A stretch of 64,000 nt of DNA, taken from positions 146,509 to 210,508 of the forward strand of contig JBDRMK010000017.1 of assembly GCA_043812155.1 (NCBI GenBank), in the 5' to 3' direction. The stretch's first letter is position 1, and the number at the start of each line of letters is the position of its first letter. Of the stretch, positions 7,392 to 63,007 are shown one piece after another. This DNA comes from Patescibacteria group bacterium (GTDB lineage Bacteria > Patescibacteriota > Patescibacteriia > JAXHNJ01). Under the pieces are notes generated by a model that worked only from the letters and a program-made list of their open reading frames with translations, was not told where the DNA came from and did no database searches. A program made the position numbers and the translations under genes.

Positions 7392-7427
7392 GCCGTTACT
7401 GCTACAACAGAGTGACGGCCTTTTTTA
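7392..7427. terminator. hairpin terminator (bidirectional)
   Basis: GCCGTTACTG...CAGAGTGACGGC stem followed by T6. Confidence 0.5.
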
Positions 7428-7436
7428 TGGTAAAAA

Positions 7437-7634
7437 TTATTTCTTCTTTTTCGTCTTTTCCTCTTTTAAACCCAGCGTTTCATCCTCATCTTGCTTTCCG
7501 CCAAAGGCGGATCCGCCTCGGGCGGACTTTTTGACGAAAAGCGTGGCCACGGCCGTGGCGATAGCGGTCAGAAAAGCCAGGATAAAGAACTTCTTGGCTT
7601 TGCCGCCTTTTTTTTCTTCATGTATTTCTTTCAT
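7437..7634 (-). CDS. small Lys-rich membrane protein (possibly leaderless)
   Basis: 65-aa ORF with one TM helix. TATAAT lies 7 nt upstream of the ATG on the minus strand. Confidence 0.3.
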   Translation of the reverse strand: MKEIHEEKKGGKAKKFFILAFLTAIATAVATLFVKKSARGGSAFGGKQDEDETLGLKEEKTKKKK

Positions 7635-7749
7635 ATTTTCATTATAGCCTAAAAATCAAATTGACAAAAGAGCGGAAAAAGACTATTTTTTAATTAGAAA
7701 TAATTGAAATCAAAGCGGCTCATTAACTACTAAATTCTAGGGGGTAATC

Positions 7750-18461: not shown

Positions 18462-18491
18462 GAAGACGGATTGATCCGTCTTGATTTTTTT
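18462..18491 (+). terminator. rho-independent terminator
   Basis: AAGACGGAT-TGA-TCCGTCTT stem followed by T8. Confidence 0.7.
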
Positions 18492-18521
18492 TATAATATT
18501 TGTTAGAATTTTAACACTTAA

Positions 18522-18593
18522 GCGCCTATAGCTTAATGGATAAAGCTCTGGTCTTCGGAACCAGCGATGAGGGTTCGATTCCCCCTGGGCGCA
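18522..18593 (+). tRNA. tRNA-Arg (anticodon TCG), no encoded CCA
   Basis: Manual cloverleaf: acceptor GCGCCTA/TGGGCGC, anticodon loop CTTCGGA, T-arm GGGTTCGATTCCC. Confidence 0.75.
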
Positions 18594-18619
18594 AATATAA
18601 ATAGTAAATACTAGTTTAG

Positions 18620-18697
18620 TTCGCCCTGAACCACTGAAGGGTTCAGGGCTGCCGTGAACTCTTTAGTAGTTCACGGCGAATCCCTCCGGGCGCACCA
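18620..18697 (+). other. tRNA-trailer element: two hairpins, then an imperfect copy of the tRNA-Arg T-arm/acceptor 3' strand ending in CCA
   Basis: Hairpins CCCTGAACC/GGTTCAGGG and CCGTGAACT/AGTTCACGG, then CGAATCCCTCCGGGCGCACCA. The tRNA 3' end is CGATTCCCCCTGGGCGCA. Confidence 0.5.
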
Positions 18698-18803
18698 TTG
18701 GCAAAAGTTATACGGGCGCATAGCTTCAGCCCGAGGCTGACCCGCCTTGGGCGGGCAGCTGGTCTCCCTGATCATAAAAATTAATATAATATAGATACAT
18801 TTC

Positions 18804-18877
18804 GGGCGCATAGCTCAGCTGGTTAGAGCACCTGCCTCTTAAGCAGGGTGTCGGGGGTTCGAATCCCTCTGCGCTCA
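18804..18877 (+). tRNA. tRNA-Lys (anticodon CTT), no encoded CCA
   Basis: Manual cloverleaf: acceptor GGGCGCA/TGCGCTC, anticodon loop CTCTTAA, T-arm GGGGGTTCGAATCCCTC. Confidence 0.8.
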
Positions 18878-18917
18878 CTTTTAAAAACAGAGCATAAGCA
18901 TTATTAAGAAAAAATTA

Positions 18918-18984
18918 GGGGGTTCGCTTGCCCGCCGTAGTCTCCCGAAGGGAGACGAAGGCGGAAATCCCTCTGCGCTCACCA
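18918..18984 (+). other. tRNA-trailer element: copy of the tRNA-Lys T-stem and acceptor 3' strand with a hairpin in the T-loop, ending in CCA
   Basis: GGGGGTTCG, then CCGCC-GTA-GTCTCCC-GAA-GGGAGAC-GAA-GGCGG, then AAATCCCTCTGCGCTCACCA. The last 16 nt before CCA are identical to the tRNA-Lys 3' end. Confidence 0.55.
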
Positions 18985-19085
18985 TTTTAATAATAAATTA
19001 ATATTTTCCCCGCCAAACTGGCATTTTTTTTAAAATTTTTTTTATAATATAATTATCTATTTTTAACAAAAAATAAAATAATATT

Positions 19086-30177: not shown

Positions 30178-30706
30178 TTAGATATTAAGCGATTAAGCGA
30201 TCAAGATATTGAGATTTTTTTGAGAGATTATAAATAAGACTGTTAATGCCTTTTATCAGGCCATTGTAACTCTCGTCAAGAATTTTAAAATTTCTTTCAG
30301 TCATGTAATGCTGACTTAAAGCAATCCTTAAATGGCTTTGAATTTCGTAAATTTCTCCCCGGCTGATATAGAGAATGCGGAATTTATCCTTATAATGGAA
30401 CCGGCCCTGGCTTTCCGCGATATTAGCCGCCACGGAAACGGCGGCTCGTCTCATCTGCGTGGTTAAACCAAAAATCTCGTCTTTGGGAAAAACGCGGGTT
30501 ACCTTGTAAATTTGTTCCGCCAAGCTTTGAGCTTTTTGCCAAATCTTTAAATCAAAAAAAGCGCGAGCCATATTTATTCCTTTCGCGCCACCATTTGTCT
30601 ATTTATATTTTAACTGAAGTCTTTAATAAGTCAAGTCCATTTATTCGCTCAGCATCTTAATCGCTTAATCGCTCACTCGCTCAATATCTCAATCACTTAA
30701 TATCTA
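30178..30706. mobile_element. TIR-flanked cassette carrying the four-helix-bundle gene
   Basis: Outer 12-mers TTAGATATTAAG (30178-30189) and CTTAATATCTAG (30695-30706) are inverted. Inner shared blocks CGATTAAGCGAT and ATCGCTTAATCG and a CAATATCT motif complete the imperfect TIRs. The outer ends supply the stop codons of both flanking ORFs. Confidence 0.5.
30185..30571 (-). CDS. four-helix-bundle protein (TIGR02436; '23S rRNA intervening-sequence protein' family)
   Basis: 128 aa with the characteristic pattern (IWQKAxxLA...AAxSVAANIAES...ISRGEIYEIQSHL). Confidence 0.8.
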   Translation of the reverse strand: MARAFFDLKIWQKAQSLAEQIYKVTRVFPKDEIFGLTTQMRRAAVSVAANIAESQGRFHYKDKFRILYISRGEIYEIQSHLRIALSQHYMTERNFKILDESYNGLIKGINSLIYNLSKKSQYLDRLIA

Positions 30707-31327
30707 GACATCTTTTTCCATAATCACCACTTCCGCCTGCACCGCTTGTTTCAAATTTATCGCGTCTTCGGCTGACCCGGCCGCTTCCCCGTAATGCATC
30801 GGAATAACTGTTTTCGGCGCAATGGCTTGGACGGCTTCGGCCGCTTCCTGCCAGTTCATGGTATAAGTGCCGCCGACCGGCAACATGGCGATACTGATAT
30901 TTTTCAGTTCTTTCATTTCAGGGATAAAATCCGTGTCCCCGGCGTGATATATCCGCTGGCCGTCAATTTCCAAAATAAAGCCCAGGCCGCCGCTTTCTTT
31001 CGGATGAAATTCTTTATTAATATTATAGGCCGGCACGACTTCAATTTTTAGGCCTTCAACCGTCAATGTGTCGCCGGGCTTAAGCGTCCTCACCTTTCCG
31101 CCGATCTTCGGAGCCACTTCAGCCTGACAAAAGATCAGGGTCTTTTCGCCCCGGATCTTGGCGATGCTTTCCGGCGAAAAATGGTCAAAATGGCTGTGAG
31201 TGATAAAAATAAAATCGGCCATCGGCGCCGTGCCTGGAATTTTATAGGGATCAAGATAAATTGTTTTTCCTTGCTTGGTGATTATTTTGAAACCCGATTG
31301 GCCCAGCCATTTTATATTTTCCCGCAT
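30704..31327 (-). CDS. MBL-fold metallo-hydrolase
   Basis: HSHFDH metal-binding motif and MBL beta-sandwich pattern. Confidence 0.75.
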   Translation of the reverse strand: MRENIKWLGQSGFKIITKQGKTIYLDPYKIPGTAPMADFIFITHSHFDHFSPESIAKIRGEKTLIFCQAEVAPKIGGKVRTLKPGDTLTVEGLKIEVVPAYNINKEFHPKESGGLGFILEIDGQRIYHAGDTDFIPEMKELKNISIAMLPVGGTYTMNWQEAAEAVQAIAPKTVIPMHYGEAAGSAEDAINLKQAVQAEVVIMEKDV

Positions 31328-39128: not shown

Positions 39129-42100
39129 TTAAGGAATAATCAATTGCCAGCCGATTTGAATAACGCCAGGATTAGTGGACAAAGTCGGATAAACGGATTT
39201 ATTCGCTTCAATAATCTTGGTGTAATCGCTTCCCTTGCCGTAGAATCTTTCGGCAATCTTCCATAATGAATCGCCGGCGACCGCTTGGTATCTGACGCCC
39301 GAAGCAAACTGATAAACAGTCGGCAAAGACTCGACCGCTGATTTTTCCTGGATGAAATCCACGGCGTTGGAAATTCTTGAGGCCTCGCCCGATGAACTGA
39401 AAGCCTGGGTCGTAACGCTGTGGCTGCCTTCCTGCAAATCGGAAAGCGGCAAAGTGTAGGCAAAAGAAGCGGTATTGTTACTGACGCTGTTGGTGACATT
39501 AAACTCGCCGACATATTCACCGTCCACGTAAACCTTGATCAAAGAATCATTGTAAGCGACACCGCGAATGATGACTGTCGGGTTATCACCATCAGTGAAA
39601 ATGGGTTTTAAAAGCGTCGGGGTGATGTAAGGTAAGTCCACGGTGAAGGTGATTTTCGGCGAACGCTCGGAATAAACGCCGGCCGTGTTTCTGGCAATGG
39701 TATAAACGGTATGAGTCCCCTTGTTTAAATTACTCTTTAACTTATAAGCGAAAGAGCCAGTGCCGGAAGTATGGTTAGTGCTTAAAACCGTTCCGATCAT
39801 ATCGCTGTCAATAAAAATAAAGATGGTATTATTTGAGCGAGCCAAGCCGGTGATCGTCGGTAAAACCGTATCAACCGTTGAATTATCCGTAGGATAAATC
39901 AAAGTCGGTGAAGCCAGATAAACTTCCTCCTCCGATTCTTCAGCTGCTTCCTCGTTGGTTGCGAAAGTCGCGTCCGCGTCAAAAGTGGTGGTGTTGCCCG
40001 TGCTTAAAACTTCATAATGATAAGTGCTGCCGGCGGTCAATCCAGTGATAGTGATGGAGTGGCTGACGGTTAAATTACTGTCGTATATTTCACTACCGTA
40101 AGCGGTGGTCAAACCGTATCTGACTTTGGAATCGGCGGCGTGATTGGTTGTCCAGGTCACCTTGACCGAAGTCGTGCTTAGGGCTTCTGACTGGACGTTG
40201 GTAATAACTGTGGGCTCTAAAGTTGAAGTGGCAAAACTCTGGCTGGAATAAACGGATTCGTTGTTTGCCCGGTCTTTGGCCACTGGCTTGACATAATAAG
40301 TCTGGCCGGCGGAAAGGCCGGTTAAAGTCGCGGAATGCGTCGTGGTTAAATTGGAATCTTCGGTCGTGGTATTGCCCAGACTGTCAGTCAGGCCCCAGGC
40401 AACCTGCGTTTTTGTCGCTTCATCTGTTTGCCAAGTCACCACGGCGGTAAAAGTGGTGGTATCAATATCAAAATTAGAAACCGTGGCCGGAATCGTATCC
40501 TTTAAAACATAGAAACCGTCATTCAAAACTTCCCTGTAATTGCCGGCTGTGTCATAAACCCGGAAAGAAACATAATTTGTCCCTTGCTGTAAACCGCTAA
40601 AATTCACGGCCCAGGGCGTGGTATAAGAAGTTGCGTCATCCGTATAAATATTGGTCCAGCTAAGAATATCGCTTCCGCCCTGACTGGTGCCGATGGCATA
40701 CTGGGCGTAATCCAAAGGCGCGCCGCCGTTGGAAAGGAAAGATACCGGATAAGTCGTGCCGGCTGTATTGCGCCAGGTATCATCTCCGGTCTGATTATTT
40801 ACGACTTCCGGTGAAGTCACGTCTACTTTATAGGGCCCTAGATCCAAAGTCGCGCCGGCATCAGCGGCAACATCATCGCCGTTATAGGCCTTAACATGCA
40901 AATACCAACTCCCCTCGCTGGTCGCGGTTAATTCTTTGGTGTCTGAAGACCATTGGGTTTCTGTGTCGTTAAAGACGTATGTTTCATTTTGGTTCCAGAC
41001 ATAACGATAGTATTGGACTCCGCCGGCCCCAAAGCCGGCTTCATTGGTGAATGTAAAATTTAAATCATTTGTCCAAGCACTTTCTGTCCCATCTGAAGTA
41101 ACATCAGCGGCAGCCGCTAAAGTATATTTAGCTTCGCCGGCAATGGCGCCGTTTTCTTCACTATCGCCATTTCTGGTTTTGGCGTCAAAAGTATATTCGG
41201 TGTTGGCGACTAATCCGCTTTTCTCCCAGGTATTGGTCTGCAGCCAGCCGGAGTTGGTGGCCGTGGCGCTTTCAGTAAAATATATCCCAGAAGTACCGGA
41301 AGCTAGATTGGAAATTAACCCTTTACTAGAAACAGTAATAGCATTTTTGCCTACTGAATCAAATGATAAACCAGTTGGAGATTCAATGGAAGTATAAACA
41401 CTCCGATTATCAGTATTATCCGTGTTACAGGAATTTTGCGCCTGAAGATACCGGGTATATTGTGTGTTAGCGGATAAAGAATTTTCCTGCCAAGAAACAG
41501 TGTTAGCCGCCAAATCGCCGGATTTATTATTATTACCCGTATCCATTACCCGATAGTTAGCTTCATCAGAAATATCTTCCCAACTCCAGGTGATTGAACT
41601 TTCAGTCTGGCTAGAATGTCCAAGATAACTTCCTTCAGGTGACACTGGCATACTAACTAAAGGATTAACCGTAATAGTTTTTGTTAAAGAATCATAATAA
41701 TCTTCCGAAGGAAAAGGGACAACAACTCTGAATTTGATGGTTTGAGTACCGGCTGAGTTCCCATACACCGTCTTACTCCAAGTTGCTGTTTCAGGACTAG
41801 ATGAGCCATAATACGTGCCTGATGAAACCTTAATAGGCGTTGAAGTTGTCATCGCACTGCCGTTTACTAAACCAAGATACTCGGTTGAAGTAGTACAAGT
41901 CGTTCCCGGTGCACTGTCTCTAAAATATCCGGAAAAAGTAAATGAGGCACCTTTGCAAATCGTCTGATCTGAAGCCGGTGCCGTGACAGTAACGGTATAT
42001 GGTTCCGTACAAGTAATTGCCGCTTGCACAGTCGATATTTTAAAGTTAAATATAAAAAATGATGTAGCCAAGCCAATGAAAGTCAAAAACACCGTGAAAA

Positions 42101-42362
42101 AGCTCAAGGCGTATTTTTTGTAGGTTAAATACCGGGAATAAGAAACAATAAATTCGCCTTTTTCATCCCGGCCGGCTAAACTGGAAAAACTGTCATAAGG
42201 GAGATTTTTCAGGAAATGGGGCAAATAAGCCAGACTGAATAGGATTTCCTGAAAAATGACTGGCAAACACTTAAGACAGCGCTTTATCCCTTTTGGTGTT
42301 TCATTAAAGCACTTTAACCGCTTTTTATGGGCATTGTAAGTTTTTATTAGCAAATTATCCAT
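39129..42362 (-). CDS. giant cell-surface protein: N-terminal TM anchor, multiple FN3/Ig-like domains, conserved Big-like module, C-terminal LysM
   Basis: 1077 aa. FN3 segment and the C-terminal 250 aa are paralogous to 33350..36880. The LysM tails are about 85% identical at nucleotide level. Confidence 0.75.
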   Translation of the reverse strand: MDNLLIKTYNAHKKRLKCFNETPKGIKRCLKCLPVIFQEILFSLAYLPHFLKNLPYDSFSSLAGRDEKGEFIVSYSRYLTYKKYALSFFTVFLTFIGLATSFFIFNFKISTVQAAITCTEPYTVTVTAPASDQTICKGASFTFSGYFRDSAPGTTCTTSTEYLGLVNGSAMTTSTPIKVSSGTYYGSSSPETATWSKTVYGNSAGTQTIKFRVVVPFPSEDYYDSLTKTITVNPLVSMPVSPEGSYLGHSSQTESSITWSWEDISDEANYRVMDTGNNNKSGDLAANTVSWQENSLSANTQYTRYLQAQNSCNTDNTDNRSVYTSIESPTGLSFDSVGKNAITVSSKGLISNLASGTSGIYFTESATATNSGWLQTNTWEKSGLVANTEYTFDAKTRNGDSEENGAIAGEAKYTLAAAADVTSDGTESAWTNDLNFTFTNEAGFGAGGVQYYRYVWNQNETYVFNDTETQWSSDTKELTATSEGSWYLHVKAYNGDDVAADAGATLDLGPYKVDVTSPEVVNNQTGDDTWRNTAGTTYPVSFLSNGGAPLDYAQYAIGTSQGGSDILSWTNIYTDDATSYTTPWAVNFSGLQQGTNYVSFRVYDTAGNYREVLNDGFYVLKDTIPATVSNFDIDTTTFTAVVTWQTDEATKTQVAWGLTDSLGNTTTEDSNLTTTHSATLTGLSAGQTYYVKPVAKDRANNESVYSSQSFATSTLEPTVITNVQSEALSTTSVKVTWTTNHAADSKVRYGLTTAYGSEIYDSNLTVSHSITITGLTAGSTYHYEVLSTGNTTTFDADATFATNEEAAEESEEEVYLASPTLIYPTDNSTVDTVLPTITGLARSNNTIFIFIDSDMIGTVLSTNHTSGTGSFAYKLKSNLNKGTHTVYTIARNTAGVYSERSPKITFTVDLPYITPTLLKPIFTDGDNPTVIIRGVAYNDSLIKVYVDGEYVGEFNVTNSVSNNTASFAYTLPLSDLQEGSHSVTTQAFSSSGEASRISNAVDFIQEKSAVESLPTVYQFASGVRYQAVAGDSLWKIAERFYGKGSDYTKIIEANKSVYPTLSTNPGVIQIGWQLIIP

Positions 42363-42507
42363 CCTTAATAATTACCACTAAATATAGCTAGCTAAAATTG
42401 GGCAATTAATACGCCCTTATATATATTATACGCTAAAATTAGCCATTTGTCAAGAGCAAATAAGCTAAAACTTGATATTTATTCATATTTAATTTATCCT
42501 TTTAAAT

Positions 42508-42762
42508 ATGAGCAAGGATAAAAAAAGAAAATTTCAAGCTATTATTAACCAAAATCAGTTTGTTAACCTTCAGAATTCTAAAAATACTGAATCTTCAAAA
42601 ATAAAAGAAACAACAGATAGATTTTTAAGAAGTGATCTGCTAAAGGTATTCGGTCTCGCTATTAGTATTATTGCCATTTATATTGTTCTATTTTTTTATG
42701 ATTCAAACACAGGAAAAATTACTGTTTTTGCGGAAAAAATTTCTAATGTACTTATAAAATAA
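42508..42762 (+). CDS. small membrane protein (hypothetical)
   Basis: 84-aa ORF with one TM helix in a 28% GC segment. Weak support. Confidence 0.3.
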   Translation: MSKDKKRKFQAIINQNQFVNLQNSKNTESSKIKETTDRFLRSDLLKVFGLAISIIAIYIVLFFYDSNTGKITVFAEKISNVLIK

Positions 42763-42890
42763 TTTTGCGACACATTATTTTGTCTAATAATAGCGAAATA
42801 TAGTAATTTATATCATCTATTTTCGGAAATATTGTTAATTTTACATGGATTTTTAATGAAAATTCATCTAATATTAGCCTCAAAATGACC

Positions 42891-42912
42891 AAATGTTCCA
42901 CGTGGAACATTT
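42891..42912. promoter_or_regulatory. perfect 22-bp palindrome AAATGTTCCACGTGGAACATTT upstream of tRNA-Arg
   Basis: Read directly from the sequence. Lies 14 nt upstream of the tRNA start. Candidate operator or protein-binding site. Confidence 0.4.
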
Positions 42913-42925
42913 TTAAAACCTAATA

Positions 42926-42997
42926 CGCCCCCATAGTTCAACGGATAGAACAATCCCGTCCTAAGGGATGGATCTGGGTTCAATTCCTGGTGGGGGC
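42926..42997 (+). tRNA. tRNA-Arg (anticodon CCT), no encoded CCA
   Basis: Acceptor GCCCCCA/TGGGGGC, anticodon loop GTCCTAA, T-loop TTCAATT. Confidence 0.75.
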
Positions 42998-43039
42998 ATA
43001 ATAATCATCGATTCTCGTAGTGAACACCGCTATTCGCGA

Positions 43040-43150
43040 ATGGCGGGGTGAACGAAGATCCCGCAACCCAAAGTGGTGCGGGACTGGTGGGGGCATATCC
43101 CCTGCCCTAAATTATTATTAATCAGCAGGGGATTAAACAAATAATACGGG
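43040..43150 (+). other. tRNA-trailer element with a copy of the tRNA-Arg(CCT) acceptor 3' strand (ACTGGTGGGGGCAT), then a 9-bp hairpin
   Basis: Hairpins CCGC...GCGG and CCCGCA...TGCGGG, then CTGGTGGGGGCA (43084-43095) matching the tRNA 3' end, then ATCCCCTGC...GCAGGGGAT. Confidence 0.45.
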
Positions 43151-43152
43151 GA

Positions 43153-43200
43153 TATAGTACAGTGGCAGTACGCGGCATTCGCACCCGCCTCCCGGAGTAC
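43153..43200 (+). other. partial tRNA-like 5' fragment (acceptor + D-arm + anticodon-arm-like) with no T-arm
   Basis: GGGGATATAGTACAGTGGCAGTAC-GCGGCATTCGCACCCGC shares GCATTCGCA with the adjacent tRNA-Ala anticodon arm. Confidence 0.35.
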
Positions 43201-43273
43201 GGGCCGTTAGCTCAGTTGGTAGAGCGTCGCATTCGCATTGCGAAGGTCGGGAGTTCGAATCTCCCACGGTCCA
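43201..43273 (+). tRNA. tRNA-Ala (anticodon CGC), no encoded CCA
   Basis: G3:U70 identity pair, anticodon loop TTCGCAT, T-arm GGGAGTTCGAATCTCCC. Confidence 0.8.
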
Positions 43274-43365
43274 TTGCCCGTACGGCGGTCAGGTTGCCGA
43301 GACTCAGGGAAGACTCCCGGTATCTCCACCAAATATTAGCAGTTAGGCTCATTGTGTGAAAATTT

Positions 43366-43443
43366 GGGGTTTCCCGCCACAAAAAACAAGAAAAGGGGCA
43401 GGACCCCGCCAGCTGGCGGTGGCGAGTCCCCTCGGGTCCACCA
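43366..43443 (+). repeat. 78-nt structured repeat ending in ...GGGTCCACCA (tRNA-Ala acceptor 3' strand + CCA), copy 1
   Basis: About 90% identical to 44125-44202. Outer stem GGGGTTTCCCGCCAC/GTGGCGAGTCCCC, inner hairpins GGGGCAGGACCCC and palindrome CGCCAGCTGGCG. Confidence 0.6.
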
Positions 43444-43468
43444 AGTATATATTTTACATTAATAGATC

Positions 43469-43741
43469 ATGAAATTTGACGCATTTCTACTTGTATATTA
43501 TTTTGCCGGTGTTATTCAAGATTTTTTGCTAACACTAAATTGGCGCTATGTCGCAAAAGAAAAGGCGTTGTTAGCTTCTGTATTTTTATTTTCTACGATG
43601 TTCGTAACAATGGTTGTTTTATATAATATCTTTACTCGGTTAGATAACGAAAGAAGTATATTAGCTATAATAGTCTATTCACTAGGTGTTTGCACCGGCA
43701 CATTTTTAGGAGTAAAAATGAAAATTGGCCATAAATTGTAA
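43469..43741 (+). CDS. small 3-TM membrane protein (hypothetical)
   Basis: 90-aa ORF in an AT-rich segment between tRNA-associated repeats. Confidence 0.35.
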   Translation: MKFDAFLLVYYFAGVIQDFLLTLNWRYVAKEKALLASVFLFSTMFVTMVVLYNIFTRLDNERSILAIIVYSLGVCTGTFLGVKMKIGHKL

Positions 43742-43785
43742 ATTTGTATTAATTACTCTATAATGTGCTTACATTATCAATAATT

Positions 43786-44032
43786 CTGGGCCTCTAGCTC
43801 ATTTGGTATCCCTGGCCCTATGGTCCGGCCCCTGGCAGAGCCGGGATCCCGGTTAAAAAACCAGGGAGACCCCGGCGCAAAGCGCCAGGGGGAGCGCTGT
43901 AAATTAAACAATTTATTAATATAATTTTGGGCCTCTAGCTCATTTTCCGCCAAAGGCGGATCCGCGCTCCGTCGCCCAAGCTATGGAGCGTCGGCGACCT
44001 CTGGCGGAGGATAGAGCGCCCCGCACTTTTTT
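43786..44032 (+). other. two truncated tRNA 5' fragments (GGGCCTCTAGCTCATTT...) within a GC-rich structured spacer
   Basis: At 43789 and 43930 the first about 20 nt resemble a tRNA acceptor/D-arm. The full tRNA-Ala at 44033 begins GGGCCTGTGGCGC. Confidence 0.4.
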
Positions 44033-44105
44033 GGGCCTGTGGCGCAACTGGTAGCGCGCCTCCATGGCATGGAGGAGGTTGTGGGTTCGAGACCCATCAG
44101 GTCCA
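44033..44105 (+). tRNA. tRNA-Ala (anticodon GGC), no encoded CCA
   Basis: G3:U70, anticodon loop ATGGCAT, T-arm GTGGGTTCGAGACCCAT. Confidence 0.8.
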
Positions 44106-44124
44106 GAAAAGTGCGGGGAGATGA

Positions 44125-44202
44125 GGGGTTTCCCGCCACAAAAAATTAAAAAAGAGGCGGGACCCCGCCAACTGGCGGTGGCGATCCCCCTGAGGTCCAC
44201 CA
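44125..44202 (+). repeat. 78-nt structured repeat ending in ...GAGGTCCACCA, copy 2
   Basis: See copy 1. Lies immediately downstream of tRNA-Ala(GGC). Confidence 0.6.
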
Positions 44203-44204
44203 AT

Positions 44205-44240
44205 AAAAAAACAGCTTTTTCCGTTAATAGCTGTTTTTTT
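44205..44240. terminator. bidirectional hairpin terminator
   Basis: AACAGCT/AGCTGTT stem flanked by A7 and T7. Confidence 0.6.
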
Positions 44241-44242
44241 GT

Positions 44243-44857
44243 TTATTTATGCGCGTACAAAGTAGGATGCATTATATAACCGATTTCCGTCAAAAAACCA
44301 ATTTGACAAAGCATCGGTTTCAATATTTCCCCGGTTTTTTGGCCCATACGCTCATGATAACAGGCGATAGCAAAATTTTTAGTAATTTCCAGCATTTTTC
44401 GCATACCTTCAAAAGCTTCCAATTCAGAGCCTTCGATATCCATTTTTACAAAATCTATTGTAATTAACCCAATTTTAGTAATTTCATTATCAAGGGTAGT
44501 TGTTTGAATTTTTATCCCTGCTGACTGATTATTTACAATCGATTTTGAATTATTTGGAAAAAAATTTGTTTGGCCTATTTTATTTAAAATTGCTTTATTT
44601 ATAAGAATAATATTACTAAAGTTTGAATTTTGTACATTTTTTTGCAAAATATTAAAATTTTGCGGATCCGGTTCAAAGGCAATCACTTTTCCTTTTTTAC
44701 CCACTTTTTTTGCCGCCATAAGAGTAAAGCCGCCTAAGTATGCCCCAGCGTCAATAATAATATCCCCTTCCTTTATCTTATATTTTCTTAGAAAACCATA
44801 ACTTGTAACCGCGGTGCCGAAATAATCCAGGCTTTTTTTAATAAAGACACTAATCAT
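44243..44857 (-). CDS. FkbM-family SAM-dependent methyltransferase
   Basis: IIDAGAYLGGFTL SAM motif and FkbM-domain pattern. About 33% GC, lower than surrounding genes. Confidence 0.7.
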   Translation of the reverse strand: MISVFIKKSLDYFGTAVTSYGFLRKYKIKEGDIIIDAGAYLGGFTLMAAKKVGKKGKVIAFEPDPQNFNILQKNVQNSNFSNIILINKAILNKIGQTNFFPNNSKSIVNNQSAGIKIQTTTLDNEITKIGLITIDFVKMDIEGSELEAFEGMRKMLEITKNFAIACYHERMGQKTGEILKPMLCQIGFLTEIGYIMHPTLYAHK

Positions 44858-44995
44858 AATTATAAGTATACTCCTTGTTTGAACTTATAAAAATGGTTTA
44901 GTAACACCCCCCCCTCGAAAAAGATATCTTTGCTAAAAACTCTTGACTTCATGTTCTAATCTGCTCCCCCCTCGCGTTTTTTATTATTTGAATAT

Positions 44996-45024
44996 TTGAC
45001 TTAACAGTAATATACGCATATAAT
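44996..45024 (+). promoter_or_regulatory. consensus sigma70 promoter TTGACT-17-TATAAT for the csoR-trxA operon
   Basis: Exact hexamers with 17-nt spacing, about 70 nt upstream of the CsoR start. Confidence 0.6.
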
Positions 45025-45092
45025 ATAGATACTCCCCCCCAGTATACCCCCCCTACACTAATTAAGCTAAATACAGCCAAAAAATAAAAAAT

Positions 45093-45347
45093 ATGAAACA
45101 ATCGCCTGTTAAATCACGCCTCCACCGTTTAGTTGGACAAATTCAAGGCGTGGAAAAGATGATGGAAAGCAACCGCGACTGCCAGGAAATTATCCAGCAG
45201 CTCATGGCGGCCCGGGCTTCTTTGGAAAAAATCTGCTTGGCTATTCTTCACGACGAAACTTCCAGCTGTTTTATCGGCCAAAAAAACTCCAAGGAAAAAT
45301 TAAAAGATCTGGAATATATCACCCATAATTTATTTAAAATTAAATAA
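45093..45347 (+). CDS. CsoR/RcnR/FrmR-family metal-sensing transcriptional repressor
   Basis: 84 aa with LVGQIQGVEKMMESNRDCQEIIQQLMAARASLEKI matching the DUF156 helix pattern, including the Cys in helix 2. Confidence 0.7.
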   Translation: MKQSPVKSRLHRLVGQIQGVEKMMESNRDCQEIIQQLMAARASLEKICLAILHDETSSCFIGQKNSKEKLKDLEYITHNLFKIK

Positions 45348-45358
45348 AGGAAAATTTT

Positions 45359-45682
45359 ATGTCCGAAATCACTTTAACCGACCAAAACTTTGAAGCCGAA
45401 GTATTAAAAGAAGAAAATATGCCCATTTTGGTTGATTTTTGGGCCACCTGGTGCGGACCTTGCCAGATGCAGGGCCCGATTATCGAAAAACTGGCGGAAG
45501 AAATGACAGGCAAAGCAAAAGTGGGAAAAATTGATGTGGATCAAAGTCCGAATATGGCGGAAAAATTCGGGGTGAAAAGTATACCCACTCTGATGATTTT
45601 CAAAAAAGGGGAAATAGTTTGGCAATCAACGGGCTTACAGACCCAAGATAAGCTCATGGTGGAATTGAATAAACATATTTAG
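45359..45682 (+). CDS. trxA: thioredoxin
   Basis: WATWCGPCQM active site, 107 aa. Confidence 0.9.
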   Translation: MSEITLTDQNFEAEVLKEENMPILVDFWATWCGPCQMQGPIIEKLAEEMTGKAKVGKIDVDQSPNMAEKFGVKSIPTLMIFKKGEIVWQSTGLQTQDKLMVELNKHI

Positions 45683-45714
45683 CACATTAGACTTATAATT
45701 AAAAACACTGGATA

Positions 45715-45860
45715 AATTACAAATTTCAATACCCAAATTACAAATAAATTCCAATGCCCAAAATCTCAAAATCCAAAACGACGCAACGGTTTCGGTCATT
45801 AGGTAATTGGAATTTCGATTTTATTTGAATTTTGTTTTTTGTAATTTGGAATTTTTAATT
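45715..45860. repeat. AT-rich palindromic repeat (AAATTCCAATG family), copy with internal inverted duplication
   Basis: Left arm ...AAATTCCAATGCCCAAAAT..., right arm ...AATTGGAATTTCGATTTT.... Homologous to 9115-9200 and 23665-23790. Confidence 0.6.
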
Positions 45861-45901
45861 GAATAAATAGGATTAGCTTAACAAAAAAAACTAACATAAC
45901 T

Positions 45902-46846
45902 ATGAAATATGACGTCATAATCGTTGGCGCCGGGGCGGCCGGTCTATCCGCCGCCCTTTATACCAGCCGCCGAAATTTAAAAACCTTAGTTATATCAGAA
46001 GATATCGGCGGCCAAGGAGCAATGGCGGGCACGATCGAAAATTATCCCGGGCTGGAAGAGACGACCGGGCCGAAACTGATGACGGAATTTTACAGCCAGG
46101 CCCAAAAATTCGGGGCGGAAATAAAGACCGAAGAGGTTTTAAGCATTCAAAAAAAAGAGGATAAATTCCTGGTCAAAACCAATACCAAAGAATCAACCGC
46201 TTCAGCCGTAATTCTTGCTTTCGGACTTTCTCACCGTCATCTGAACGTGCTGGGCGAGGAAAAATTCATCGGCAAAGGCGTGGCCTACTGCGCCACTTGC
46301 GACGCTCCGCTTTACAAAGGGAAAACCGCGGCCGTGGTCGGCGGAGGAAATTCGGCCCTGGACGCCGCCTTGCTTTTGGCCAAAAATTCGCCGAAAGTAT
46401 ATTTAATTTATCGGGGCGATAAATTATCAGGCGAAGATATATTGATCAAGCAAATACTAAGCCAGCCGAATATTGAAGTGTTGTTCAAAACTCAAATAAC
46501 GGAAATCAAAGGCGAAGCGAGCGTCAATAAAATCGTGATTTCCCAGAATAATCAGGAAAAAGAACTGGAAACCGCCGGCGTTTTCGTGGAAATCGGCTAT
46601 GAAGTAAAGTCTGATTTTATAAAAGGCCTGGTCAGTCAAGATGAAAAAAAACAAATAATCATTGACTTGGATGGAAAAACTTCCGAGGAAGGAATTTTCG
46701 CCGCTGGCGATGTCACCAACATCTCTTTTAAACAGGTGATTATTTCCGCGGGCGAAGGAGCGAAAGCGGCTCTTTCCTGCCATAAATACCTGCAGTCCCA
46801 AGGATTGACCAAGGGAGTCTTTATTGATTGGGGTAAGAAAAAATAA
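45902..46846 (+). CDS. trxB: thioredoxin-disulfide reductase
   Basis: FAD motif GAGAAG, redox-active CATC, NADPH motif GGGNSA. Confidence 0.9.
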   Translation: MKYDVIIVGAGAAGLSAALYTSRRNLKTLVISEDIGGQGAMAGTIENYPGLEETTGPKLMTEFYSQAQKFGAEIKTEEVLSIQKKEDKFLVKTNTKESTASAVILAFGLSHRHLNVLGEEKFIGKGVAYCATCDAPLYKGKTAAVVGGGNSALDAALLLAKNSPKVYLIYRGDKLSGEDILIKQILSQPNIEVLFKTQITEIKGEASVNKIVISQNNQEKELETAGVFVEIGYEVKSDFIKGLVSQDEKKQIIIDLDGKTSEEGIFAAGDVTNISFKQVIISAGEGAKAALSCHKYLQSQGLTKGVFIDWGKKK

Positions 46847-61656: not shown

Positions 61657-62235
61657 ATGAAACTCGCCAAGTCACAGCTTAAAAAAATTGAAAGGTCAGT
61701 GCAAAAAATTTACCAAAAAAATAATGATCCCTATCATCATTTTAACCACGCTTTTAGAACGGCAAAATTAGCCGCCTATATTGCCAAAAAGGAGAAAGCC
61801 AACCAAACAGTCTGTTATGTCGCTGGACTAGTTCACGACATCTCCCCGAAAACCCGAGGGGAAACTCATGGCCTGGCCTCAAGCCGAATGGCCGAAAAAC
61901 TCCTGAGGAAACAGGTTCTCGACCGATATTTTATCCGCCAGGTCTGCCAAGCGATTAAATACCACGATACTGCCGCCCGACGAAAAATCAAAACTTCCGA
62001 AGGCAAAATTGTATTTGACGCTGACAAACTCCAATGCCTGGGGCCGGTCGGCGCGATCCGTGAATACGGCGACTACCTTAAACTCAGCTATGGCCATACT
62101 AAAGTCATAAAAATAACCCTGGATTATTTAAAAAATAATAATCCGCCGCTGTTCACAAAGACAGGCCGCTCATTAAAAATACCCTTAAAAAAATTCAATT
62201 TAGAATTTGTTAGACTCTATAATGAATATAAATAA
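61657..62235 (+). CDS. HD-domain phosphohydrolase
   Basis: H...HD motif (HHFNHAF...GLVHDI). Confidence 0.6.
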   Translation: MKLAKSQLKKIERSVQKIYQKNNDPYHHFNHAFRTAKLAAYIAKKEKANQTVCYVAGLVHDISPKTRGETHGLASSRMAEKLLRKQVLDRYFIRQVCQAIKYHDTAARRKIKTSEGKIVFDADKLQCLGPVGAIREYGDYLKLSYGHTKVIKITLDYLKNNNPPLFTKTGRSLKIPLKKFNLEFVRLYNEYK

Positions 62236-63007
62236 AATAAAACTTACTATTTTAGGCTCCGGCTCATACCAGCCGGAATTGAACCGACATTCCGCCAGCC
62301 ATTTGATTCAAATTCGTAATCAAAATCTTGTTTTTGATTTTGGCCGCGGAACTTTAGACCAATTAATGAAACTTGGTATTAACTATTATAATATTGATGC
62401 TATTTTTATTTCCCACACTCACCCGGATCATTTTTCCGAATTGGCTTCTTTCTTGCATATTGCTCTGGCTGAACCCGGGATTGGCGAAAGAAGAAAAAAA
62501 GACATTACTATATACGGCCCAAAAGGATTTAGAGGAAAAATGGCATTATTTTATCGGTCCTTAAATATTGAAAAATTCCGGCCGAAATATAAAATAAATA
62601 TTGAGGAAATCCCTTCGGGAAAAATTATCAAAGGAAAAAATTGGCAAATTCAGGGATTTAATACCACTCATTCAAGCAGTCTAAATTGTCTCTGTTATCG
62701 TCTAAAACACAAAAATACCATCTTTGCCTATTCCGGCGACAGCTCAATATCTTTAGGTCTAAAAAAGGCCATAAATAATGTCGATTTAGCCTTAATAGAA
62801 GCCAGCTGGCCGGAAGAAACAGCACCTAAAACGCATTTAACCGCCGAGCAGGCGGGAAAAATCTGCCAAGAGTCAGGCGTGAAAAAAATGGTTTTAACGC
62901 ATGCCTCGCCCATGTATTTCAAAAAATATAATCTTAAAAAATTAGCCCGTAAATATTTTAAAGGCCTGATTATATTAGCGCGAGATTTAATGAAAATTAA
63001 TATTTAA
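62222..63007 (+). CDS. MBL-fold metallo-hydrolase (RNase Z/BN-like)
   Basis: ISHTHPDHF motif. Start at the internal Met overlapping the previous gene end. Confidence 0.65.
   Translation: MNINKIKLTILGSGSYQPELNRHSASHLIQIRNQNLVFDFGRGTLDQLMKLGINYYNIDAIFISHTHPDHFSELASFLHIALAEPGIGERRKKDITIYGPKGFRGKMALFYRSLNIEKFRPKYKINIEEIPSGKIIKGKNWQIQGFNTTHSSSLNCLCYRLKHKNTIFAYSGDSSISLGLKKAINNVDLALIEASWPEETAPKTHLTAEQAGKICQESGVKKMVLTHASPMYFKKYNLKKLARKYFKGLIILARDLMKINI

Follow-up and report, generated by a model that had tools for sequence, protein, structure and literature searches.

The 64-kb window analysed here, i.e. the whole stretch of DNA under study, belongs to a contig of a Patescibacteria-labelled metagenome-assembled genome (MAG) and raises the question of why tRNA genes that lack an encoded CCA end should be followed by copies of tRNA 3' ends that carry one (window coordinates are used throughout). 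The window contains five tRNA genes, all on the forward strand: tRNA-Arg(TCG) and tRNA-Lys(CTT) form cluster 1, and tRNA-Arg(CCT), tRNA-Ala(CGC) and tRNA-Ala(GGC) belong to cluster 2. According to ARAGORN and Rfam, which agree in this respect, none of the five genes encodes CCA. For cluster 1, the original prediction had described two CCA-less genes, each with a hairpin and a CCA-bearing 3'-end copy downstream, and this description was confirmed, the copies starting 84 nt past tRNA-Arg and 88 nt past tRNA-Lys. On balance, we consider it probable that older tRNA genes once stood at the same spot and left their displaced ends as the CCA-bearing copies, and that the loops of these genes are hotspots of small non-coding insertions, with regeneration of the tRNA in place.

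The origin of the copies becomes visible by comparison with the sole relative that has the cluster-1 layout, JBAZMP010000001 (L001 in the following; genome JBAZMP01), whose PPDK is 82% identical to that of the window. In L001, the tRNA-Arg(TCG) gene is intact and its CCA end is genomically encoded. The CCA-bearing piece downstream of tRNA-Arg(TCG) in the window, GAATCCCTCCGGGCGCACCA, is identical to the last 20 nt of this L001 gene (20/20; 23/23 by BLAST) and matches the 3' end of the window's own tRNA-Arg at only 15 of 18 positions. Moreover, the gap of 16 nt between the end of tRNA-Arg and the start of tRNA-Lys in L001 recurs in the window between the Arg remnant and the copy of the tRNA-Lys 5' end. 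Since the ends are the same and the gaps are equal, the CCA-bearing pieces can be regarded as displaced ends of older CCA-encoding genes. The working tRNA-Arg(TCG) genes of the window and L001 are only 79% identical, and the window gene would thus be a replacement allele and not the 5' part of the old gene; the differences, many of which compensate in stems, extend over the whole length, including the 5' half. Judged from this comparison, the CCA-bearing pieces occupy the ancestral gene-end positions and the CCA-less tRNAs are the predicted working replacements.

The tRNA-Lys(CTT) genes of the window and L001 are identical (74/74), and the L001 gene likewise lacks CCA. In the window, the 3' remnant of tRNA-Lys consists of GGGGGTTCG, which corresponds to the 5' strand of the T-stem plus TTCG, a 38-nt palindromic hairpin with a 3x3 internal loop and AAATCCCTCTGCGCTCACCA, which comprises AAAT, the 3' strands of the T-stem and the acceptor stem and ACCA. 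In L001, the working gene is followed after about 40 nt by GTTC, the same two hairpins that are found in the Arg trailer of the window and then GAATCCCTCTACGCTCACCA. Because orthologous Lys-remnant T-loops thus contain different inserts, the inserts turn over faster than the remnants. The remnants agree with L001 at 20 of 20 and 18 of 20 positions, and the adjacent spacers are 58-69% identical. Upstream of tRNA-Lys, the window contains an extra 90 nt relative to L001, bounded by a repeat of the first 12 (20) nt of the tRNA; the 12-nt copy of the 5' end that had been reported at 18714 is indeed present, but it is truly a 20-nt copy, in which an insert of 30 nt with two small hairpins (18726-18755) separates nt 12 from nt 13. 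In both genomes, the conserved terminator follows the Lys remnant and not the working Lys gene, so the remnant would be transcribed together with the tRNA. The repeats of cluster 1 are far beyond chance: the pattern ATCCCTCNGNGCNCACCA has three matches with up to two mismatches, as compared to 0.04 expected, and 17 nt are exactly repeated between 18862-18878 and 18966-18982. The previously proposed likeness of the copies to T-arm mini-structures fits the Lys remnant, but it overlooked that the T-loop apex is where the hairpins were inserted and that one of these insertions is common to the remnants of three different tRNAs.

This common insertion is a unit of 55 nt that is composed of two hairpins, hp1 and hp2. 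It is present at three T-loop sites, namely in the Arg remnant of the window, in the Lys remnant of L001 and in a tRNA-Phe remnant at a second locus of the genome of L001 (L087). At L087, the last 27 nt of tRNA-Phe(GAA) recur exactly downstream of the gene, past a spacer and a hairpin, and are split between TCC and GATT by the two-hairpin unit, nothing being duplicated or lost. Apart from this unit, the Phe remnant reproduces the 3' part of the adjacent tRNA-Phe exactly, so that the insertion is precise. The insertion point is the same at all three sites: it separates C56 from G57 in the old T-loop (TTC^GAA or TCC^GAT) and coincides with the dyad of the T-arm palindrome. Identity among the three copies amounts to 90%, and the two-hairpin fold pairs 96.5% of the positions and is accompanied by three compensatory pair changes in hp1, as compared to none for an alternative single long hairpin. 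Moreover, hp1 matches the reverse complement of hp2 at 22 of 27 positions; therefore, the unit forms a doublet of two inverted copies of a 27-nt palindrome. For the L087 copy, the inverted alignment is the better one (7 mismatches versus 12), a call of orientation that is soft for a quasi-palindromic unit. The doublet is rare in the sequences examined: one copy was found in the window, two in a 608-kb contig of the relative by an exact 19-mer scan and none in the other 700 kb examined. A metagenome scan with the hp2 core yielded four matches, two of which are the Lys locus and L087 in the genome of L001; the other two have no tRNA nearby and are chance-like. Thus, the doublet is a discrete element with precise placement in the T-loop. 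IS91 prefers GTTC as a target; the junction at L087 reads GTCC/AATC.

The pattern described for cluster 1 is real but not confined to it, because tRNA-Arg(CCT) and both tRNA-Ala genes (42927-44202) have remnants as well (Table 1). Thus, every tRNA gene in the window (5/5) has remnant copies; counted over both clusters, four of the remnants have ACCA at their end. Downstream of tRNA-Arg(CCT), a 12-nt copy of its end begins at +86 and is preceded by hairpins. The two tRNA-Ala genes lie within shells, i.e. older tRNA-Ala-like genes whose 5' and 3' parts flank the working gene. The 5' part of the first shell contains the acceptor strand GGGGATA, a D-arm and CGGCA-UUCGCA, and its 3' part contains UGCCG, a degenerate T-arm and TATCTCC-ACCA. 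The acceptor stem has seven perfect base pairs including G3:U70, and the shell encloses the working tRNA-Ala(CGC) at position 37/38. Removal of this insert restores a 7-nt anticodon loop (UUCGCAU); the T-loop is non-canonical and ARAGORN makes no call. The second shell contains the working tRNA-Ala(GGC) in its anticodon loop, flanked by a 12-bp helix (CCCCGCACUUUU/AAAAGUGCGGGG), and its fold has a z-score of -8. When its three inserts were removed and a 7-nt anticodon loop was supplied, ARAGORN called a tRNA at the default threshold. Both Ala shells retain the acceptor, D, anticodon and T stems; in the corresponding Lys shell the anticodon arm is unpaired.

Several other features of cluster 2 were observed. 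A module consisting of CTCGTAGTGAA and two hairpins is located 3' of tRNA-Arg(CCT) in the window (43013-43083) and 5' of tRNA-Arg(TCG) in L001 (2486-2570); its 5' part looks tRNA-derived, and its second hairpin shows a compensatory change (TCCCGCA/TGCGGGA versus TCCCGCC/GGCGGGA). The T-loop inserts of both Ala-like 3' remnants (43395-43410 and 44154-44169) read as terminator-like hairpins with T-runs on the reverse strand, one of them facing a convergent methyltransferase gene. The candidate dispersed repeat CCCGCAC...GTGCGGG is not repeated within the window. Cluster 2 and the open reading frame (ORF) of this FkbM-family methyltransferase (44243-44857, reverse strand) lie in a low-GC stretch from 42000 to 46000 (0.37-0.39), which looks like a horizontally acquired patch; the best homologs of the methyltransferase, with at most 52% identity, come from DPANN archaea and bacteria of the Candidate Phyla Radiation. 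As an anchor for cluster-2 orthologs the methyltransferase gene failed, its best homolog (52% identical) not being syntenic.

Table 1 Features of the two tRNA clusters in window coordinates
Feature	Position	Strand	Remarks
Promoter-like site TTGATT-17-TAGAAT, 5' of the tRNA cluster	18481-18509	+	Region partly conserved in L001
tRNA-Arg(TCG)	18522-18593	+	ARAGORN, Rfam; CCA not encoded
AT-rich spacer (25 nt), then GTTC	18594-18622	+	GTTC = 5' half of old T-loop
Two-hairpin insertion, 55 nt	18623-18677	+	hp1 18623-18649, hp2 18651-18677; at TTC^GAA of old T-loop
Arg remnant GAATCCCTCCGGGCGCACCA	18678-18697	+	T-loop 3' half, T-stem 3' strand, acceptor 3' strand, ACCA
Inter-tRNA spacer, 16 nt	18698-18713	+	L001 spacer equal in length, 11/16 identical
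tRNA-Lys 5' remnant	18714-18763	+	nt 1-12 = GGGCGCATAGCT 18714-18725; nt 13-20 = CAGCTGGT 18756-18763
AT-rich spacer with TATAAT	18764-18803	+	Not in L001
tRNA-Lys(CTT)	18804-18877	+	ARAGORN, Rfam; CCA not encoded
AT-rich spacer, 40 nt, after tRNA-Lys	18878-18917	+	58% identical to L001
tRNA-Lys 3' remnant	18918-18984	+	GGGGGTTCG 18918-18926, hairpin 18927-18964, AAATCCCTCTGCGCTCACCA 18965-18984
Intrinsic terminator of tRNA unit	19008-19031	+	3' of Lys remnant; kept in L001 with compensatory A-T to T-A
tRNA-Arg(CCT)	42927-42998	+	ARAGORN, Rfam; CCA not encoded
tRNA-Arg(CCT) with structured trailer and 12-nt 3'-end copy	42927-43095	+	Copy 43084-43095, no CCA
Older tRNA-Ala(CGC)-like shell	43148-43331	+	5' part 43148-43200; 3' part 43274-43331, ends ACCA
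tRNA-Ala(CGC)	43201-43273	+	ARAGORN, Rfam; CCA not encoded
Orphan tRNA-Ala-like 3' part, T-loop insert, ACCA	43366-43443	+	87% identical to 44125-44203
Extra 5' remnant of tRNA-Ala shell	43788-43899	+	Acceptor 5' strand, D-arm with hairpin inserts
Older tRNA-Ala shell, inserts in D-, anticodon- and T-loops	43929-44202	+	Ends GAGGTCC-ACCA
tRNA-Ala(GGC)	44033-44105	+	ARAGORN, Rfam; CCA not encoded

The nearest relatives of the window's PPDK (73-82% identical) are nearly all from Candidatus Omnitrophota MAGs. In PPDK-linked Omnitrophota loci, a gene for a PHP-domain protein is normally located 7-40 nt past tRNA-Arg(CCT). In 7 of about 26 such loci, a unit of 100-190 nt follows the tRNA gene and ends in a copy of the tRNA end that comprises the 3' half of the T-loop and the 3' strands of the T-stem and acceptor stem, whereas none of seven tRNAs from non-Omnitrophota loci has such a copy. 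The site is empty at L074, where the next gene starts 15 nt past tRNA-Arg(CCT), and filled at L048, where a direct repeat of 26 nt, ATTCCTGCCAGGGGCACTTAGAYTAT, delimits a unit of 118 nt; tandem units follow the gene at L007 and L046. The copies in these loci carry CCA only when the gene does. The units open with a short inverted repeat of the 3' region of the T-stem, their interior being GC-rich and structured, and the inserts of L046 and L060 are homologous. At the distant locus L023, tRNA-Arg(CCT) is followed by a tRNA-Ala-like 3' part that ends in ACCA and has an insert in its T-loop, and at L087 a 15-bp leader-trailer helix encloses tRNA-Phe. In all of the about 14 remnants examined, the T-loop is disrupted.

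Three further observations concern the same loci. A multi-hairpin module of about 100 nt (...CCCCGCGTTTTCGGGG...GCCATAGGGG...) is shared by L046 (5515-5702, two tandem copies) and L060 (3989-4129); its closing helix is based on the T-arm 3' sequence, and it matches neither Rfam families nor viral sequences. At L002 and L015, pairs of the palindrome GGGACTGTCCC, which is another small repeat family using the slot of the tRNA-end copies, lie between tRNA-Arg(CCT) and the PHP gene. In the L002-L085 loci, about 1.4 kb downstream of PPDK, tRNA-Arg(CCT) and the PHP gene are tightly coupled, and two of the PHP products have weak or faint matches to the Pfam family RNase_P_p30.

From this, we infer the following course of insertion and transcript processing. 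In an Omnitrophota-like lineage, the hairpin loops of tRNA genes (T, D and anticodon) would be targeted by small non-coding insertions. Each event would leave a working tRNA, which is either regenerated by a duplicated segment or provided as a new CCA-less copy; in addition, one or two remnants of the old gene would remain as direct repeats at its flanks. GC-rich palindromic modules would enter the spare remnants exactly at the T-loop apex, either later or in the same event, and the 55-nt doublet would in this way have reached the same T-loop position in the remnants of three different tRNAs. T-loop inserts would be seen only in remnants because a working tRNA could not tolerate an insert, which a spare copy can. 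The remnants, being part of the tRNA transcription unit, would presumably be trimmed off when the tRNA is excised, and CCA would be added enzymatically. The responsible enzyme may be a transposase or recombinase that is specific for hairpins or single-stranded DNA and acts in trans.

Several observations weigh against this explanation. No transposase, integrase, RAYT or reverse transcriptase was found among the about 45 ORFs scanned in the 64 kb, and we infer mobility from the distribution of the units alone. The doublet is low-copy in the sequences examined, whereas typical REPINs are far more numerous, and units of 100-190 bp are very small for circles of the integrase type. Furthermore, the disruption of every remnant T-loop fits poorly with two independent events; it suggests either a link between duplication and insertion or selection against intact spare T-arms. 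The remnants are also better conserved than the spacers and the shells retain their stems, which could reflect function or gene conversion rather than mere youth. Finally, synteny of cluster 1 was found in one relative only and that of cluster 2 in none; PPDK relatives at 78-79% identity have an aminoacyl-tRNA synthetase gene upstream and no tRNAs, and yielded no more cluster-1 orthologs.

The conservation of the remnants leads to the alternative that survives best, even though we regard it as unlikely: the shells and trailers may be functional RNAs, transcribed together with the real tRNA as scaffolds of tRNA origin whose loops have expanded. Once RNase P and RNase Z have released the inner tRNA, the outer pieces would stay annealed as anticodon-less, CCA-ended molecules, which could participate in tRNA processing or regulation, serve as decoys or carry amino acids outside translation. 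Such a role would account for the 20/20 and 18/20 agreement of the remnant 3' strands next to spacers of 58-69% identity, the perfect 7-bp outer acceptor helices, the D, anticodon and T stems kept in both Ala shells, the retention of G3:U70 in the Ala-type shells and the leader-trailer helices of 12 bp around tRNA-Ala(GGC) and 15 bp around the tRNA-Phe of L087. The compensatory changes in the hairpins, the position of the terminator 3' of the remnant and the recurrence of an interrupted, ACCA-ended tRNA-Ala-like 3' part in the distant L023 point in the same direction. However, close relatives carry different inserts at one orthologous site, and presence, absence and tandem copy number vary at the same loci. 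The anticodon arm of the Lys shell is unpaired, the Arg remnant has no 5' partner strand, nor do most of the Arg(CCT) trailers, and L001 has an intact Arg gene without a trailer. Moreover, tRNA-like recognition requires the T-loop consensus, which has been destroyed in all cases, and the conservation is equally explicable if the remnants arose recently or if the working copy, at a distance of about 100 nt, served as a template for gene conversion. A stricter version of this idea, according to which the shells are made on purpose as a two-piece, anticodon-less and CCA-ended tRNA-like RNA that is paired via the acceptor stem and an extended anticodon stem, appears improbable to us. If so, the Ala-type shells could be chargeable, given G3:U70, and the RNAs could act as aminoacyl donors, as decoys for tRNA-targeting enzymes or toxins, or as chaperones for the maturation of the inner tRNA, and the hairpin inserts may be functional expansions that are kept by selection.

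It is similarly improbable that the copies are ordinary scars of kilobase-sized islands or prophages which were integrated by a tyrosine integrase, brought the new CCA-less end and later lost their body by deletion. tRNA-integrating islands are typically recognised by a regenerated gene together with a directly oriented, displaced fragment, and this is the known logic of elements that target tRNA genes (Islander, PMC4383910). Crossovers in the T-loop or the anticodon loop are also classical, for instance at the attB site of Ms6 in the T-loop of tRNA-Ala (PMC1762012). The likeness to tRNA-gene att sites is evident for Arg, Lys, Arg(CCT) and both Ala genes, each of which combines a working gene with a direct-repeat fragment of the original end; in addition, the repeat may pass the tRNA end, as it does at L048, the junctions lie in T- and anticodon-loops and units can be arranged in tandem. 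In contrast to islands, the 'element' is non-coding and always spans only 84-190 nt, with neither coding sequence nor gene fragments in the intervals, and this holds for many independent lineages. There is no kilobase body and no integrase in the window, and no phage, plasmid or viral match was obtained: BLAST searches with the Arg trailer against phage and plasmid collections and scans of viral contigs for the hp2 core and the L046/L060 trailer motif gave no match. Furthermore, the T-arm at the far border should be intact according to the integrase model, whereas the T-loop of the displaced fragment is always split; 5' fragments and the nesting of whole genes occur, and the working tRNA-Arg differs from the ancestral gene throughout. 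The suggestion of an att-type duplication therefore holds as far as a displaced piece of a tRNA gene is concerned, which is what the 16-nt spacing, the terminator and the L001 gene end indicate, but not as far as a classical island is meant.

It had also been suggested that the encoded CCA is a sign of retro-derivation, i.e. that mature CCA-added tRNA or tRNA-primed cDNA was reverse-transcribed and inserted, and that the copies resemble primer-binding sites when read on the opposite strand. The contrast between copies with CCA and adjacent working genes without it invites this idea, which we nevertheless consider very improbable. The intact L001 ortholog encodes the same end with CCA, so that no mature-tRNA intermediate is needed to explain the CCA of the copies. 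The copies span only the 3' third of the tRNA with an interrupted T-loop, copies of the 5' end also exist, and the tRNA-Arg(CCT) copies lack CCA whenever the gene does. The absence of a reverse transcriptase among the scanned ORFs counts against both suggestions. Least credible of all is an artefact of metagenome assembly, which could be suspected from the tandem repeat at the contig end in L007, since the copies in the window are non-identical, carry CCA and contain unique inserts, and the same architecture recurs with conserved flanks in independent assemblies.

Returning to displaced gene ends and loop insertions as the favoured explanation, the architecture combines an att-type duplication of tRNA genes with REPIN-like miniature elements. 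REPINs are doublets of repetitive extragenic palindromic (REP) sequences that form hairpins, are non-autonomous and are thought to be moved by RAYT transposases (PMC3116915). The 55-nt unit resembles them as a non-coding inverted doublet of a 27-nt palindrome which occurs at several loci and can be folded as one long hairpin or as two hairpins, substitutions preserving the two-hairpin form. It differs from REPINs by its very low copy number in the sequences examined, by its location so far only at the apex of tRNA T-loops and by the lack of a RAYT among the scanned window ORFs; the likeness thus concerns the doublet architecture, and neither the position of the GTAG tetranucleotide nor the link to a transposase is part of the match. 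Cis-mobilisable elements (CIMEs), known from the literature on integrative and conjugative elements (ICEs) of Streptococcus, are att-flanked elements of kilobase length that have lost their recombination genes and are visibly derived from ICEs. Like CIMEs, the units described here are located between att-like direct repeats at a tRNA-type site and lack an integrase; unlike CIMEs, they consist of about 0.1-0.2 kb of structured GC-rich hairpins.

The shells also recall the intron-containing and split tRNA genes of archaea and eukaryotes, because inserts are found in all three loops of a tRNA-shaped gene and the insert at 43201 occupies the canonical position 37/38, with the anticodon loop being restored by its removal. 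However, the host is a bacterium, two of the three shells would have no usable anticodon arm after removal of the inserts, and a complete working tRNA of the same identity is present beside or inside each shell. Bulge-helix-bulge introns were rejected because the junctions, when 43148-43331, 43929-44202 and 18879-18984 were folded, turned out to lie in continuous helices or symmetric internal loops and not in a 4-bp helix between two 3-nt bulges; archaeal-type introns were rejected for this reason and because two of the three shells would be undecodable. When compared by eye, the core site (GTTRRRY) of integron attC sites does not match the T-loop junctions. ARAGORN detected no tmRNA in the window, and neither its tmRNA mode nor its intron mode called any shell. 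Searches with the covariance models of Rfam 15 in the window clusters and seven related loci brought only tRNAs above threshold, in the window the five known ones, and assigned the trailers to no family, the tRNA-like ones (tmRNA, YrlA/Y RNA-like, mascRNA and others) included; permissive scans gave weak matches far below the gathering threshold, such as YrlA with 16.5 bits versus 69.

As to the source of the DNA, the window contains typical bacterial housekeeping genes (PPDK, PilT, RNase Y, ClpP, IF-2, NusA and trigger factor). Both the source MAG and its closest relative, L001, carry the label 'Patescibacteria group bacterium', which is probably wrong, given the PPDK neighbours. Two proteins with a metallo-beta-lactamase fold are encoded at 62207-63007 (forward strand) and 30704-31327 (reverse strand), matching Lactamase_B_2 and Lactamase_B_3; one of them could be RNase Z, the expected cutter of CCA-less tRNAs from structured trailers. 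Hairpins of the type CCGCC-N3-10-GGCGG occur 11 times in the window as compared to 0.19 times in shuffled sequences, and 4 of the 11 lie within the tRNA clusters. A 22-nt stretch comprising a small CCGCC/GGCGG hairpin and its flank, TTTCCGCCAAAGGCGGATCCGC, is identical at 7495-7516 and 43944-43965. The latter is the D-loop insert of a tRNA-Ala shell, and the former lies within an apparent small ORF of about 70 amino acids on the reverse strand (approximately 7424-7636); the sequence may thus be a tiny palindrome that was inserted in frame into a protein gene.

The displacement of tRNA gene ends has consequences for the reading of such genomes. Island finders that are based on displaced tRNA fragments would call spurious 'islands' of 0.1 kb, an encoded CCA in a tRNA fragment is not readable as the signature of a retro-copy, and nested, degenerate genes are to be expected in tRNA annotation. 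An insertion activity that is specific for hairpin apices would, if the enzyme is found, be of possible interest as a tool. A literature search aimed at palindromic elements homing to the tip of the tRNA T-arm revealed no such case. If the explanation is true, miniature palindromic elements would home to the tip of the T-arm, which is among the most conserved hairpins in any genome, and an uncultivated phylum would show a fast in-place turnover of tRNA genes, in which the old genes persist as shells around or beside their replacements.

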